DNA of 64,000 nucleotides from an uncultured Phycisphaerales bacterium. Its GTDB lineage: Bacteria > Planctomycetota > Phycisphaerae > Tepidisphaerales > Tepidisphaeraceae. A model generated the notes under the pieces. The model had not been told where the DNA came from, made no database searches, and was given only the letters and a program-made list of their open reading frames with translations. This document shows, one piece after another, positions 40,133 through 48,976 of this stretch. The stretch is from the NCBI GenBank assembly GCA_963755915.1, contig CAVWLP010000002.1, positions 4,096,001 through 4,160,000 on the forward strand, written 5' to 3'. The translations under genes and the position numbers were made by a program. The first letter of the stretch is position 1. The number at the start of each line of letters is the position of its first letter.

Positions 40133-41163
40133 ATGAAGATTCTGGGAATCGAATCAACCTGCGACGAGACCGGCGCGGCGGTCGTGGAAAACGACGTGCG
40201 CATCCTCAGCGACGTCGTCTCCAGCCAGGTCGCGCTCCACGCAAAATATCGTGGCGTCGTGCCCGAGATTGCCAGCCGCGCCCACATCGAGAACATTTTG
40301 CCGGTGGTAGGGGAGGCGCTGAAAGACGCGCACATTGAATTGAAAGATATCGATGCGGTAGCCGTCGCCCATCGACCGGGCTTGATCGGATCCCTCCTAA
40401 TTGGCGTGACCGCGGCCAAAACCTTGGCTTGGTCCCTGGGCAAACCCCTCATAGGGGTCGACCACGTCCATGCTCATCTATACAGCGTCCGTTTGACCGA
40501 TGGCCAACCAAGCCCAGAACCACCAATGCCCGCCGTCGGCCTGGTTTGCAGCGGCGGCCACACCGCCCTCTACCAGGTCAATGATTTCCTGAACATCGAA
40601 ATGATCGGCACCACCCTCGACGACGCGGTAGGGGAGGCGTATGACAAAGTCGCCGCGATCCTCGGCCTGGGATACCCCGGCGGCCCCGAAATCGACCGCC
40701 TCGCGCCGAAGGCAATCCTACTGCGATACGTTTTCCCCGCAGCCGCCTCAATCGCCAATCCCTCGATTTTTCCTTCAGCGGCATCAAAACCGCCGTCCTC
40801 TATCACGTCCGCGGTTTTCAGGGCCGCCAGCGCGAAACAAATTTGTCTCCCCAGGAGCTGCGCGACATCGCCGCCTCCTTCCAGGCCGCCTGCATCGACG
40901 TCCTCGTCGAAAAAGTAAAACGTGCCGCCAAACGAATCCGCGCCAAAACCGTCATCATCGGCGGCGGAGTCTCCGCAAACACCGGCCTTCGCGCCGCCAT
41001 GGCAAAATTAGCCATTCCCGTATTCTTCCCGCCGATGCAATATTGCACCGACAATGCCGCCATGACCGCCGGCTTGGCGCATTGGGTCCTCCAGTCCGGA
41101 AAACAAAGCGAGCTCGATTTGGACGCCATCACCAGCAGCCAATTTGCCGATGCCGCGAATTAA
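40133..41163 (+). CDS. tsaD: tRNA N6-threonylcarbamoyladenosine transferase (frameshift near 40705)
   Basis: Motifs ILGIESTCDET, VVPEIASRAH, HVHAH, SGGHT and GEAYDK. After the shift: DFSFSGIKT, GGVSAN and CTDNAAM. Confidence 0.93.
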
Positions 41164-41989
41164 CCGACCACCCTCCCTCCCGCCGCGACCCGTCGATGGC
41201 CACAAGGGCCTCTTCGGCCGCGTCCTGATCGTCGGCGGAAGCGACGAAATGATCGGCGCCCCCGTCCTCGCCGGCGAAGCCGCCCTCCGCACCGGCAGCG
41301 GCCTCGTCCAAGTCGCCATGCCGCGCGAAGTCCTCGCCGCGGGCCTGTCGGTCGTTCCGGAACTGGTAGGGATGTCGCTGGACGAAACCAACGCCTCCAC
41401 CCAAAAACTTCTCGAAGCCGCCGAAAAAGCGGATGTTATTGCCGTCGGCCCCGGTTTGGGCCAGTCCCCATCACTCGGCCCGCGCTTGGACGCTCTCTTT
41501 CGAATCAAAAAGCCCATGGTCGTCGACGCCGACGCCCTGAATTATCTCTCTTCTCTCGGCTCCTGGCCAAAATTCTTTGCCGCGCAAGCAGTCCTCACCC
41601 CGCATCCCGGCGAAATGAAACGCCTCGCAAAACTCTTCGGCCAGGACGAAGTCCCCTCAGACGAGAAAGGCCGCATCGAGATCGCTCTCAAGGCCGCGAA
41701 AACTTTTGGCCAGATCATCCTCCTCAAAGGCCACCGCACCATCGTCACCGATGGCAAAAAACTATACATCAACAAAACCGGCGACAGCTCCCTCTCAAAA
41801 GCCGGCGCCGGAGATGTATTAAGCGGAATCCTCGCCTCCCTGATCGGTCAAAAAATGCCGCCCTTCGACGCCGCCTGCGCCGCCGCACACCTGCACGGAA
41901 AAGCCGGCGAGCTCGCCGGCAAACGCCTCGGACGCCGCAGCGTTCTCGCCCGCGACGTCATCGACGCGATTCCAGACGCGATCGCCTGA
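41150..41989 (+). CDS. nnrD: ADP-dependent NAD(P)H-hydrate dehydratase
   Basis: Motifs HKGLFGRVLIVGGS, GPGLG, VVDADAL, LTPHPGE and AGAGDVLSG. Confidence 0.9.
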   Translation: MPRINRPPSLPPRPVDGHKGLFGRVLIVGGSDEMIGAPVLAGEAALRTGSGLVQVAMPREVLAAGLSVVPELVGMSLDETNASTQKLLEAAEKADVIAVGPGLGQSPSLGPRLDALFRIKKPMVVDADALNYLSSLGSWPKFFAAQAVLTPHPGEMKRLAKLFGQDEVPSDEKGRIEIALKAAKTFGQIILLKGHRTIVTDGKKLYINKTGDSSLSKAGAGDVLSGILASLIGQKMPPFDAACAAAHLHGKAGELAGKRLGRRSVLARDVIDAIPDAIA

Positions 41990-42088
41990 AGCAACCTGCA
42001 ACATCACACCCGTATTTCCCCCTCCCCCCGTAGGCCGCACGTATGTGATGATCGGCCGAGCAACCCACAGGCGAATACTCGGCATTTT

Positions 42089-42532
42089 CCCCCTCTCCTG
42101 GTACCCAGCTTGCCATTACCACATTTATCTGGCAGACCAACCGCCCCCCCGCAAAAAGGGCCAAACAGTGCGCCCTCATCCCGCCGTGTTTCGCCACAAA
42201 TGCCACGAATTGAAAGTATCCACTAGGGAGGTCGGACTAGGCGGGCTGTGAAGGACGGTTGAGGTCGAGCCTGTGCTCGAAACTCCTTAGCGCCCTGCCG
42301 CCGCAGGCGGCGACTCCTTGCCCAACACCTCAAGGCCGCCTTGAACGTCACCGGGGCAGCCGTGTGCCATCGCCGCGGAACCGCCTGTTACATTCGAGCC
42401 GCCGCATTTTCTCGGCACCAAAAACGTAACCGATAATAGTCTTTCTCTTCTATTCGCCTGAAATTACCCGGCTTCCCCACAAAAATGTGAGTAATGACAA
42501 GTGGTACTCCGGGGGAGGGTTGGGATGGGGGG
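42089..42532 (-). repeat. Palindromic PSPGVPG-type repeat split by the 400-bp element
   Basis: 42089-42104 plus 42508-42532 rejoin to CCCCCTCTCCTGGTACTCCGGGGGAGGGTTGGGATGGGGGG, which matches 60454-60494 and 50277-50316. Confidence 0.8.
42105..42504. mobile_element. 400-bp non-autonomous element (MITE-like) inserted in a palindromic repeat
   Basis: Imperfect terminal IRs: CCAGCTTGCCATTACCACATTT on the left, and CCACTTGTCATTACTCACATTT as the reverse complement of the right end. TAC is duplicated on both flanks. No transposase ORF inside. Confidence 0.75.
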
Positions 42533-42607
42533 TTCTGCGGATGCATCCTTGCACAAGTCCCAAGCACCTCCACCAGCCAAAAAACAAAATCCGGTTACAA
42601 TCCCCCC

Positions 42608-43228
42608 ATGCGTCTCCTGATCACCGCCGGCCCCACTCGCGAGCCGATCGACCCCGTGCGCTATATCGGCAATCGCAGCAGCGGCAAAATGGGCGCCGCC
42701 CTCGCACACGCCGCGCTAAAATCCGGCCACCAAACAACGGTAATTCTCGGCCCAATCTCCGTCCCATTCCCCAACGGCGCCCGCAGGATCGACGTAGAAA
42801 CCGCAGCCCAGATGCTCGACGCTGTGCTCAAAGAATTCCCCAACCACGATCTCCTCATCATGGCCGCCGCCGTCGCCGACTATCGCTCCAAAGCCCAAAG
42901 CGCCGCCAAGCTCTCCCGCGAAGGCTCGCGCATCCTCGAATTAGAGCCCACCGAAGACGTTATCGCCGCCGCCGGCCGGATCAAGCGCCCCGACCAGCGC
43001 ACCATCGGCTTCAGCCTCGAAACCACCCCCGACCTCAGTCGCGTCTCCGGCAAGATGCGGCAAAAAAACCTCGACCTCATTATTTACAACCCCGTCGCCA
43101 CCATCGGTGCCGAATCCATCGAACCCTCCCTTCTCTACCCCGATGGCCGCATAGAAAAGGCACCTTACGGCTCCAAAGCCCACTTCGCCGATATGCTCCT
43201 TCAGAGGGCCCATGAACTATTCAAATAA
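42608..43228 (+). CDS. coaB: Stand-alone phosphopantothenate-cysteine ligase (CoaB half of CoaBC/Dfp)
   Basis: Motifs LITAGPTREPIDPVRYIGNRSSGKMG, AAAVADY, IGFSLET and KNLDLI. No CoaC domain. Confidence 0.88.
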   Translation: MRLLITAGPTREPIDPVRYIGNRSSGKMGAALAHAALKSGHQTTVILGPISVPFPNGARRIDVETAAQMLDAVLKEFPNHDLLIMAAAVADYRSKAQSAAKLSREGSRILELEPTEDVIAAAGRIKRPDQRTIGFSLETTPDLSRVSGKMRQKNLDLIIYNPVATIGAESIEPSLLYPDGRIEKAPYGSKAHFADMLLQRAHELFK

Positions 43229-47310: not shown

Positions 47311-47446
47311 GGAGAAGCTATAGGGCAGTATTCCCACAGCTTCATCGAGGCAAAAGCAGCCTCAAACTCCACCCATCTTACCCCCTCCCCGCCGACCGCG
47401 ACATCCGAGCAGAAGTTAGCAGACACTATCCAAAATCCCAAAAGTG

Positions 47447-48969
47447 CAATATTGTCCGGGACTTCCGCGTCTTAGAGCTGGGATTTTTCGGGTTTTCACT
47501 CGAAAGGCTGCGTTGCCTCGATGGGCAACGGCGTGGAAGGTTCAGCGCTGCTCCTGCAGCGCATGCCGCGGCGTTCACCGGCGGCCGGACAACAAAAACC
47601 CCCGGTGACTTACTTGACGATTTTTTCAGCCTTCTTCCGTGCCACACGCTGACGCTGCAGCTCGCATTCCCGTTCTCGGCGCTGCAGGATGGGAATAATC
47701 TCTTGCAACGTGGCCCCTCCCGCGGCGACCAGGCTCAGCATCGCGTAGGCATATTTGCTCACCGGACGCTGCGTGTGCAGATAGATCAACAGCACCCCGA
47801 TGACCGCGATGTAGAACCCGGTGGTGACGCCGTTTTTGCTGTGGCTGGTGAGATGGCGGAAGTGGGCGTGCACTTTCAGCCAGCGGAAAAACAGCTCGAT
47901 CTTCCATCGCCAGCGGTAGAGCAGACCGATGACATGGGCGGGAATGTTAAGAAGATTGGTCAGCAGCCGCAGGGGCCTGTCGGGTTTGTCCGGGTCGAAG
48001 ATCGTCACTTCCCGAAGCCATTTTCCCGCCGGAGGAGCAAAGCGTGGCCCTTCTGAGCCCAGGTATCCGATCCGGTCGCTGAGAATGCCGGCAGCGCGGT
48101 CTTCATCGCTCAGCGGCAGGGACTTGGGGGTCAAGTCATTGTTTTCGATGGGAATGAAATAGTTGTTTGACTTGAGCCGGAGCACAAAATCGCTGCAGGC
48201 ATGTACGATCCGCTCCAGCAGCTCAAAACAGACGTAGCCGCGGTCCATGACGTAAATCTGTCCCGGCTCCAGGGACTGCATCAGCGCCTGCGCCTCGGAG
48301 CATCCCGCGCCGCTGATCGTCACTCCCTCGGGAACCCCCACGCCCGCCGCCCATTGAAGATTCAGGCGAATCGTGTCCATGGGCTTTCCGTTGGGTCGAC
48401 TTTGATGCAGCGCCCAGGCCACGTCGGCGGCAACGGTGAACAGCGACCCATCCACCACCCGTACCCGCTCGGTCAACTCCGCCAGCTTCGGATCGCCGTG
48501 ACGCAGGTGCGGCAGCCGCGCCCGCAACTCCTCGATGATCGGCTCCAGCAGCGTCGGATCGAACAGGGCGTTGGCATCGGAAAGCGTGGAACGCGGCAGG
48601 CGATCGACCGAAAGCTGCTCCTGCATCTGCTCGGTCTGGCTGAAATCCTCCATCGTCCGCAGGCTGCGAATCGCCGGCGTGAAAAACGCCAGCAGATAGG
48701 CAAGGGTCACATCGTCATAAAAAAGCGTGCGATTGGGGTGGGGATGCGCCGCCCGCAGGCGGGCCAGATGATCCTGCAAAATACCGACGTACTTGCCGCC
48801 GAACAAATCCTCCCCCCGCACCGCCGGCCGCGGCTTTCGTCCCGGCTTGGCGGGCAATCCAGAAGCTGGGCAAAGGTCCGCGTGCACGTGGCGGCAGTGA
48901 ACCACAAAACGCTGCTTCGCGCAAGCGCAAGATTGTGTTATTTGTGAGCCTGCGTTCCGGACACTATTG
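47447..48969 (-). mobile_element. Complete IS4-family insertion sequence (1523 bp)
   Basis: 16-bp IRs CAATATTGTCCGGGAC / CAATAGTGTCCGGAAC (14/16). Perfect 9-bp target duplication CCAAAAGTG at 47438-47446 and 48970-48978. Confidence 0.93.
47610..48905 (-). CDS. IS4-family DDE transposase
   Basis: Motifs STLSDAN, VVDGS, VMDRGY and the YREK signature LYRWRWKIELFFRWLK. Start codon uncertain. Confidence 0.93.
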   Translation of the reverse strand: MVHCRHVHADLCPASGLPAKPGRKPRPAVRGEDLFGGKYVGILQDHLARLRAAHPHPNRTLFYDDVTLAYLLAFFTPAIRSLRTMEDFSQTEQMQEQLSVDRLPRSTLSDANALFDPTLLEPIIEELRARLPHLRHGDPKLAELTERVRVVDGSLFTVAADVAWALHQSRPNGKPMDTIRLNLQWAAGVGVPEGVTISGAGCSEAQALMQSLEPGQIYVMDRGYVCFELLERIVHACSDFVLRLKSNNYFIPIENNDLTPKSLPLSDEDRAAGILSDRIGYLGSEGPRFAPPAGKWLREVTIFDPDKPDRPLRLLTNLLNIPAHVIGLLYRWRWKIELFFRWLKVHAHFRHLTSHSKNGVTTGFYIAVIGVLLIYLHTQRPVSKYAYAMLSLVAAGGATLQEIIPILQRRERECELQRQRVARKKAEKIVK

Positions 48970-48976
48970 CCAAAAG

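Follow-up and report, generated by a model that had tools for sequence, protein, structure and literature searches.

Insertion sequences (ISs) that target repetitive extragenic palindromic (REP) sequences occur in five families, according to Tobes and Pareja (2006; PMC1525189). There, IS1397 and ISKpn1 of the IS3 family and IS621, ISPpu9 and ISPpu10 of the IS110 family are described as inserting specifically into REP or bacterial interspersed mosaic element (BIME) palindromes, and ISRm22, an IS4-family member from Sinorhizobium meliloti, as having 10 of 10 copies in REPs, at palindromic insertion sites whose direct repeats end in GC pairs; Tn5 target sites are likewise described as often palindromic (PMC1525189). 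Here, we consider a 393-bp element without genes of its own, located between nnrD and coaB in a 64,000-nt stretch of DNA from an uncultured Phycisphaerales bacterium (contig CAVWLP010000002.1, positions 4,096,001 to 4,160,000; hereafter the window, to which all bare coordinates refer). In our reading, which we hold at a probability of roughly 0.85, this element (42109-42501) is a MITE (miniature inverted-repeat transposable element) from a Tn5/IS50-like, IS4-family lineage of the Tepidisphaeraceae, which was moved in trans into the loop of a REP hairpin and is now a fossil. An earlier note on this DNA had already proposed a non-autonomous, repeat-targeting MITE, and that proposal is supported by an empty site in a relative, by copies at the same position in other hairpins, by autonomous relatives elsewhere in the family, and by the lack of a partner in the host genome.

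The element in its hairpin and the empty site in a relative

The genome that carries the window (G000) is 6.63 Mb in size and rated 81% complete. The element lies in a 618-nt spacer (41990-42607) that has an NnrD-like gene (41144-41989) on one side and a CoaB-like gene (42608-43228) on the other, and its right end is 106 nt upstream of the coaB start. Relatives of this locus were sought with the CoaB protein, taking one genome per species; the matches place the organism among Tepidisphaeraceae-like Phycisphaerae, and the closest locus (L001, 100% identical to G001:C3:204912-206012) belongs to the nearest relative, a genome of the same genus (G001) with 93% and 92% amino acid (aa) identity in CoaB and NnrD, respectively. 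An NnrD homologue is encoded directly upstream of coaB in L001 as well. The orthologous spacer of G001 measures 256 nt, versus 618 nt in the window, and the element is absent from it: in the alignment, one intact hairpin, TTTTCCCCCTCCCCTGGTACTCCGGGGGAGGGTTGG (CCCCTCCCCTGGTACTCCGGGGGAGGG), holding a single TGGTACTCCG, stands exactly where the window hairpin is split. The element is thus an insertion, as the orthologous spacer shows directly rather than by inference. The earlier note, made from the letters of the window, had stated that removing the element rebuilds the hairpin with the break at the loop, and had pointed to an empty nnrD-coaB site in relatives as a check; the single intact hairpin of G001 bears out both.

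Comparison with other copies sets the ends of the element at 42109, where it begins with CTTG, and at 42501, where it finishes with CAAG. Its terminal inverted repeats (IRs) read CTTGCCATTAC-CACATTT / CTTGTCATTACTCACATTT. The left IR (42109-42132, plus strand, CTTGCCATTACCACATTTATCTGG) is one base short of the right IR (42477-42501, minus strand, reverse complement CTTGTCATTACTCACATTTTTGTGG), and 21 of 25 aligned columns are identical when counted by hand with one 1-nt gap allowed; because the left IR lacks that base, an ungapped repeat finder recovered just a 13-nt piece of the pair. The same left end recurs in G001, in the MITEs of a further genome (G015) and in the IS of another (G041), and the right IR recurs at G000 C2:2240680, C2:1286248, C3:316482 and C2:1216091. 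Directly outside the IRs is a 10-bp target duplication, with TGGTACCCAG on the left (42099-42108) and TGGTACTCCG on the right (42502-42511), identical at 8/10 positions and hence with two changes. The longest open reading frame (ORF) wholly within the element is 56 aa long, and a 68-aa ORF (42045-42251) overlaps its left end.

The earlier description of an ORF-less element with imperfect terminal IRs that splits a palindromic repeat agrees in every part with the sequence, and two of its details are revised here. The element itself stands, with boundaries corrected from 42105-42504 (400 bp) to 42109-42501 on the evidence of the other copies; and the TAC that it gave as the duplication is present (42102-42104 and 42505-42507, within TGGTAC on either side of the element), but it is the portion still identical of what is in fact a duplication of 10 bp.

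The interrupted hairpin, which we call REP1, has its C-rich left arm at 42089-42101 (plus strand, CCCCCTCTCCTGG), which matches both the unbroken G001 hairpin and three further copies in the window (50277, 51252 and 60454), where the earlier note had also located this repeat; its G-rich right arm with a G-rich tail follows at 42509-42532 (plus strand, CCGGGGGAGGGTTGGGATGGGGGG), and about 230 similar stretches occur in the genome. A simple regular expression counts 244 REP1-type hairpins in G000. Further to the left, a direct repeat is present as TTTCCCCCTCCCCCCGTA (42015-42032) and TTTCCCCCTCTCCTGGTA (42086-42103), 71 nt apart, of which the stretch 42015-42032 resembles a lone left arm of a hairpin repeat. 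A 151-nt soil-metagenome contig (X3) matches 42387-42537 exactly and so spans the right junction; no short soil-metagenome contig bridges the whole element, public listings name no RNA run with this sequence, and this partial coverage is uninformative on expression or polymorphism.

A search of G001 with 42105-42501 (397 bases) as the query yielded a second full-length copy at G001:C3:612562-612979, 75% identical over 394/397 query bases. It reads ...CCCCTCCCC TGGTACTCCG / CTTGCCATTACCCACATC ... GTGGGTAATGACAAG / TGGTACTCCG GGGGAG..., with perfect IRs starting from CTTG, a 10/10 duplication, the same position within another REP1 hairpin, and, between the same IRs as in the window, the same two interior segments (the module and core described below). 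In G000, a 250-bp variant at C2:2240680 splits a REP1 hairpin as well, with a duplication of 8/10 (CTGGGTACAG / CTGGGTAGAA) and a degenerate left IR. The copies that the earlier note had suggested looking for, in the same repeat and at the same position, are thus represented by these two loci. The right IR only is present at C2:1286248, C3:316482, C2:1216091 and, weakly, C2:4368241, and the left IR with the left arm only at C2:350276, so that the tally comes to two full-length copies, one per genome in G000 and G001, plus one 250-bp variant and five one-ended remnants in G000; only G015, described below, shows these IRs at high copy number. Left ends and duplications for the copies with a right IR only, and a right end for the locus labeled A, were not found within 700 nt or 2.6 kb. 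The counterpart in G000 of the second G001 site is unreadable, the region being rearranged (2.9 kb vs 1.8 kb).

Tn5-like relatives with similar ends and targets

We scanned 101 genomes of the family for the IR pattern CTTGYCATTACYCACAT, allowing up to 2 mismatches and using the reversed pattern as a control, and found at least one match in 62 of them. Genome G015 alone has 27 forward and 32 reverse matches (59 in all, against 0 for the control), many of which form inverted pairs 124-204 bp apart; MITEs of about 125 bp are bounded by these IRs. Seven elements were read at six G015 loci, and every one of them ends in CTTGTCATTACCCACAA, with a C-rich hairpin arm outside it to the left and a G-rich one to the right; their duplications are 9-10 bp long, one being a perfect 9/9 (CGATGGGAG). 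The ~125-bp CTTGTCATTACCCACAA MITEs of G015 (L148-L151, L156, L157) themselves contain a REP1-type hairpin, that is, their own type of target, and a nested or tandem MITE pair is seen at L149.

Elements with ends of this type also occur with a transposase. In G041, an autonomous element (L147:587-2110; 1,524 bp) has IRs matching at 18/18 positions (CTTGCTGTTACCCACATC) and a 10/10 duplication (CCGCGTAGGG) in a GC-rich palindromic stretch; on folding, the duplication lies beside the predicted hairpin. Its 462-aa product matches Pfam Tnp_DNA_bind (PF14706, the Tn5 N-terminal domain) at 63.7 bits (cut-off 24), DDE_Tnp_1, the NCBIfam IS4-family transposase model NF033590 at 250.7 bits (cut-off 160) and an IS4/Tn5 N-terminal model. 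Across the autonomous relatives, PF14706 scores 63.7 and 77.7 bits and NF033590 250.7 and 331 bits, and a relative in G090 carries the Tn5 dimerisation domain (PF02281) in addition. Two ISs of 1.68 kb from the same genus as the window, in G011 (L162:1417-3094) and G005 (L164:1244-2925), have the ends CATTCAATTACCCACATCTT and CTTTCAATTACCCACATCTT, Tn5-like transposases and perfect 9-bp duplications. Their targets are much alike (..ATG(T/G)GGT(C/T)GAC(C/G)GA / GCG(C/A)TTAC...), and the flank on their left resembles the IS's own end.

Duplications are 9-10 bp long in 12 elements. When the empty sites were rebuilt by script, folded and compared with composition-matched shuffles, the duplication lay across the loop of a predicted hairpin in 9/10 elements of the CTTG type (the window copy, C2:2240680, the G001:C3 copy and six from G015) and beside the hairpin in the tenth, that of G041. 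The CTTTCAATTAC-type ISs are not in hairpins, so hairpin targeting is a trait of the CTTG-type branch rather than one that all relatives share. Where the earlier note had named no parent transposase, the lineage can now be given as most probably Tn5/IS50-like (IS4 family), although the exact parent and a partner in G000 were not found. Its precedents from other families, IS1397 (IS3) and IS621 and ISPpu10 (IS110), do not hold for the parent, whose lineage has duplications of 9-10 bp. Members of the IS3 family make 3-4-bp duplications and have TG...CA ends, unlike this element with its CTTG...CAAG ends and 10-bp duplication; IS110 elements are not known to have terminal IRs or a long duplication, and the element has both.

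Within G000, the G041 and G090 proteins have no match by tblastn (E 1e-3), a whole-genome search for a Tn5-like transposase gave 0 matches with 11 candidates scored, and PF14706 gave 0 matches while control genomes were positive. There are 59 DDE_Tnp_1 matches of other kinds. Among the ISs of other kinds is the IS4-type element of the window itself (47446-48970; 1,525 bp), which encodes a DDE_Tnp_1 transposase, carries CAAAAGT on both flanks and recurs in G000 as at least 12 near-identical copies; its IRs (GCAATAKTGTCCGG) are unrelated to those of our element, as the earlier note had remarked. A base is missing from the left IR, two positions of the duplication no longer agree, and the assembled G000 encodes no Tn5-like transposase; the window copy is therefore an immobile fossil in this genome. 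Two Y1_Tnp matches (IS200/RAYT-type, for REP-associated tyrosine transposase) occur in G000, at C3:1125127-1125471 and C3:576500-576694, and the REP hairpins themselves may be of RAYT-type origin.

A mechanism can be sketched from these comparisons. A transposase supplied in trans would bind the two IRs of about 19-25 bp (CTTGYCATTACYCACAT...), the element would then be cut out, staggered cuts 9-10 bp apart, with the loop of a REP hairpin at their centre, would admit it, and repair of the stagger would duplicate TGGTACTCCG. We infer that a Tn5-like transposase moved the window copy, and target choice would plausibly stem from a transposase dimer recognising the palindromic stem of the hairpin.

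The passenger unit and its other carriers

Inside the left IR, a left arm (42133-42225, plus strand) is specific to the MITE subfamily and common only to G000 C2:350076-350313 and the G001:C3 copy. It is followed by two segments of wide distribution, both read on the plus strand: a module (42226-42316), which starts with GGAGGTCGGAC, contains hairpins H4 (42265-42280, TCGAGC/GCTCGA) and H3 (42297-42311, GCCGCC/GGCGGC) and has many copies in the genus at 80-90% identity; and a core of 125-130 nt (42320-42450). A right arm (42451-42476, plus strand) connects the core to the right IR and has clear homology in 6/37 core copies, the window's included. Module and core together form a unit of ~225-235 nt that starts 117 nt inside the left end of the element and stops 51 nt inside its right end.

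This unit is a repeat family in all 13 genus genomes searched. The module is a commoner match than the core in the other genomes of the genus, 12/12 of which have matches, and the units are mostly head-to-head inverted pairs with 30-90 nt between module ends. In G000, the prevailing form is the solo core: BLAST finds about 45 copies at 73-89% identity, of which 38 (the window's included) have at least 100 nt aligned and 4 more are split by an IS. Nearly invariant blocks run through them (GAACGTCACC, AGCCATGTGC, GCGGAACCGC, CGAG...CTCGTCAC and AAACCGTAACCGAAAA). By crude gene calls, which also define the neighbors, all copies are intergenic, and they fall into four orientation classes relative to those neighbors (10, 12, 9 and 7 of 38). 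Over a syntenic 20 kb, G000 and G001 differ in core presence in both directions; G000/G001 synteny gave no clean boundary and no duplication for any solo core, the intergenic DNA being too diverged. The interior of the element is not IS-derived: it holds one unit of a separate, genus-wide repeat family that is carried as a passenger. We considered and rejected the idea that all cores in G000 are decayed copies of the MITE, given that clear homology to the right arm is confined to those 6/37 and an end resembling the right IR to 5. A second hairpin repeat, CCCCGTGTAGCCGCCGTGC..GCACGGCGCTTTCCC, with a loop of TT or one 25 nt longer, stands directly left of many cores (about 12 in G000, e.g., C2:2954356 and C3:186590); it is also found in the nnrD-coaB spacer of G001 (L001:2780-2840), where the window has unrelated sequence.

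We treat the unit as a conserved non-coding repeat, which resembles the conserved intergenic repeats of ERIC type. An alignment of 42 units, drawn from 13 genomes (G014 and 12 members of genus g1, one of them G000), shows block-wise conservation, and its consensus fold has 12 pairs at -6.98 kcal/mol, in which only H3 and H4 covary (compensatory pairs 195/199, CG 30 and GC 11; 224/233, AU 24, CG 11 and GC 5; 225/232, GC 33 and AU 4). The 38 G000 cores fold weakly on both strands with RNAalifold (-3.8 and -4.4), and 20 units folded on the minus strand give a long helix rich in G.U pairs. An Rfam search of 41900-42700 with E up to 10 returned a single match, at chance level (E 2.4), whose 12.8 bits fall short of the gathering score of 80. 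As the 42-unit consensus is weak, we do not claim a structured RNA. Small-ORF readings of the minus strand, beginning at ATGGCTGG or ATGATCGG, were likewise rejected: judged by eye, neither start codons nor frames persist across copies, and the variation does not fall on third codon positions. An arrangement resembling sigma-70 -35/-10 boxes can be seen by eye on the minus strand of many copies, though not all; a promoter and terminator scan of 41950-42650 gave 0 sites.

The unit also occurs in a different vehicle. In G012 and G004, a second MITE shell has the ends GGCAACCGCATTCT / AGAATGCGGTTGCC (L083, L085, L099; L180-L182): its 672-737-bp forms in both genomes hold an inverted module-plus-core pair, and its 146-148-bp forms hold two REP1 hairpins. 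Homology of the GGCAACCGCATTCT ends to the IS4-type IRs was tested and rejected, local alignments of the tails being no better than those of shuffles (z -1.3 to 2.0). The unit thus appears to be interchangeable content of two unrelated MITE shells.

Cores are in turn a target of other elements. Four near-identical 1.47-kb IS110 elements sit in G000 cores (C2:1052291-1053897, C2:348374-349975, C2:2992720-2994331 and C3:899473-901074), all at the same point of the core, between GCGTTTTATA (GTTTTATA) and ATTCGAG, and not in REP1 loops; three unoccupied cores carry the IS110 site type CGCGTTTTATATTCGAG, as do the 4 occupied ones (3 by eye). The element encodes a 399-aa transposase (Pfam DEDD_Tnp_IS110 and Transposase_20; NCBIfam NF033542, 161.5 bits, cut-off 140) and has a long non-coding part 3' of the transposase gene. 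At L111 (G004:C19) and L112 (G007:C3), too, an IS110-family element is found within a unit pair, in the short stretch that separates its two inverted modules. The IS110 family is thus present in G000 but targets the cargo repeat, not the REP hairpin.

Competing explanations and comparison with known systems

Several points weigh against our reading. The choice between insertion and loss rests on the anatomy of the element: by tblastn, nnrD stands beside coaB in just 1 of 11 relatives' loci, and because the other 10 lack this adjacency, no outgroup separates an insertion in G000 from a precise loss in G001. With G000 at 81% completeness, a transposase may be present yet unassembled. In G000, a duplication together with two recognisable ends survives in only two copies, of which one (C2:2240680) has a degenerate left end. 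The G005 and G011 ISs (IR CTTTCAATTAC / CATTCAATTAC) lie outside hairpins, and the folding of their empty sites does not surpass that of shuffles (z 1.1 and 0.1). The hairpin of the window's empty site is no stabler than shuffles (z -1.4). The check for a transposase-coding element with the same ends came out in part, with related ends in G041, G005 and G011; no transposase element with exactly the IRs of the window (CTTGCCATTACCCACAT) was found, the best agreement being 15/17 in G041 and 14-15/17 in G005 and G011. A Tn5-like IS present in four identical copies in G001 has rather different ends (TAGCCACATCTTT), for which reason it was rejected as the partner.

The missing outgroup gives room to a history in which the site was occupied ancestrally and was restored in G001 when a deletion between the 10-bp direct repeats removed the element precisely. 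Decay of the G000 copy (the 8/10 duplication and the indel in its left IR), which points to an old insertion, and the fast turnover of intergenic DNA between G000 and G001 are in keeping with such a history. To lose the element precisely and regain a perfect hairpin is nonetheless rarer than simple absence, and we consider such a loss improbable here. The full-length copies of the two genomes are ~75% identical, and therefore the family predates their split and either history is possible; an ancestral element would alter the timing only and would still be a MITE. A different enzyme is far less probable. The four near-identical IS110 copies in G000, and the classical REP-targeters among both the IS3 and IS110 families (PMC1525189), might suggest movement by an IS3-type (IS1397-like) or a bridge-RNA-guided IS110-type (IS621/ISPpu10-like) enzyme. 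However, terminal IRs of 24-25 bp with a 10-bp duplication are unlike either family, the IS110 copies of G000 sit in the core repeat, and the elements with CTTG-type ends encode Tn5-like DDE transposases, so we regard such an origin as highly unlikely.

The wealth of core copies in G000 (about 45), the two-way differences in core presence between G000 and G001, and the occurrence of units in the other shell type of G012 and G004 could mean that the mobile agent is the cargo unit, inserted by a mechanism of its own, with the IS4-like ends incidental. Against this, the break in the hairpin coincides with the IS4-type IRs and not with the ends of the unit, the composite build recurs between the same IRs in the G001 copy, and the solo cores show no clean boundary or duplication; we give this explanation very little credence. 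Co-option of the element or its cargo, whereby the unit would now serve as a small-RNA gene or as a promoter or regulatory cassette for the expression of coaB or nnrD, is compatible with a MITE origin. The block-wise conservation of 42 units, the two hairpins with compensatory changes, the sigma-70-like boxes seen by eye and the position 106 nt from coaB all speak in its favor, whereas Rfam offers no family, the consensus fold is weak (12 pairs), the promoter scan of the window copy is empty, all four orientation classes (10/12/9/7) occur, and the candidate small ORFs are not kept across copies; on balance, we find it distinctly unlikely. Speculative, and in our view improbable, is the broader idea that the cargo unit is a functional non-coding element (a small-RNA gene or a protein-binding cassette) that hitch-hikes in unrelated MITE shells and serves RNA-guided IS110 elements as their dedicated landing pad. 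If so, mobile elements would disperse the very sequences into which they and others insert, forming a self-reinforcing network, which would include the MITEs of G015 and G012 that carry REP1 hairpins, in G015 their own target.

The reading of the element as a Tn5-like MITE captured by a hairpin loop does not overturn current understanding and adds a fairly ordinary example of hairpin-targeting transposition. It has a practical side for metagenome-assembled genomes of this kind: spacers enlarged by CTTGYCATTAC...GTAATGRCAAG are to be annotated as insertions and not as native regulatory DNA. It also gives a layered picture, in which REP hairpins are hit by IS4-type MITEs, these shells have exchangeable interiors, and the conserved unit within is hit by IS110; this may aid work on the spread of intergenic repeats and on the choice of multicopy targets by RNA-guided IS110 elements.

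Tn5 makes a duplication of 9 bp, and the autonomous relatives of the window element resemble IS50/Tn5 in their N-terminal DNA-binding domain (PF14706), in DDE_Tnp_1 and, in G090, in the dimerisation domain, as well as in short terminal IRs that begin with CT and duplications of 9-10 bp. The CTTG-type IR sequences are not known to be related to the outside and inside ends of Tn5, and the two differ in targeting: the preference of Tn5 is loose, whereas the CTTG lineage strongly prefers REP loops (nine of ten across the loop, one beside it). IS1397/ISKpn1, IS621, ISPpu9 and ISPpu10 are alike in REP targeting and differ in enzyme family and end anatomy. Described MITEs such as Correia, RUP and Nezha are likewise small, gene-less, bounded by terminal IRs and intergenic; they are multicopy, and some have passenger sequence. 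As far as the Rfam search goes, which gave no match, the element shares no sequence with these or with ERIC-like repeats. A literature search for MITE and REP terms together with planctomycetes had no relevant report among the 12 papers listed of 880, a weak negative. The closest likeness is to ISRm22, an IS4-family element in palindromic REPs, here compared by its published description: ISRm22 is autonomous and alphaproteobacterial, whereas the element in the window is a non-autonomous derivative of 393 bp from a planctomycete. The phenomenon is therefore of a known kind, REP targeting by an IS4 member being in print, and the novelty lies in the lineage, in the host group and in the MITE derivative. 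With a filled and empty pair of sites and an identified enzyme lineage, the locus presents hairpin-loop targeting in soil Phycisphaerae and places a second IS4-family lineage beside the single printed case, ISRm22.

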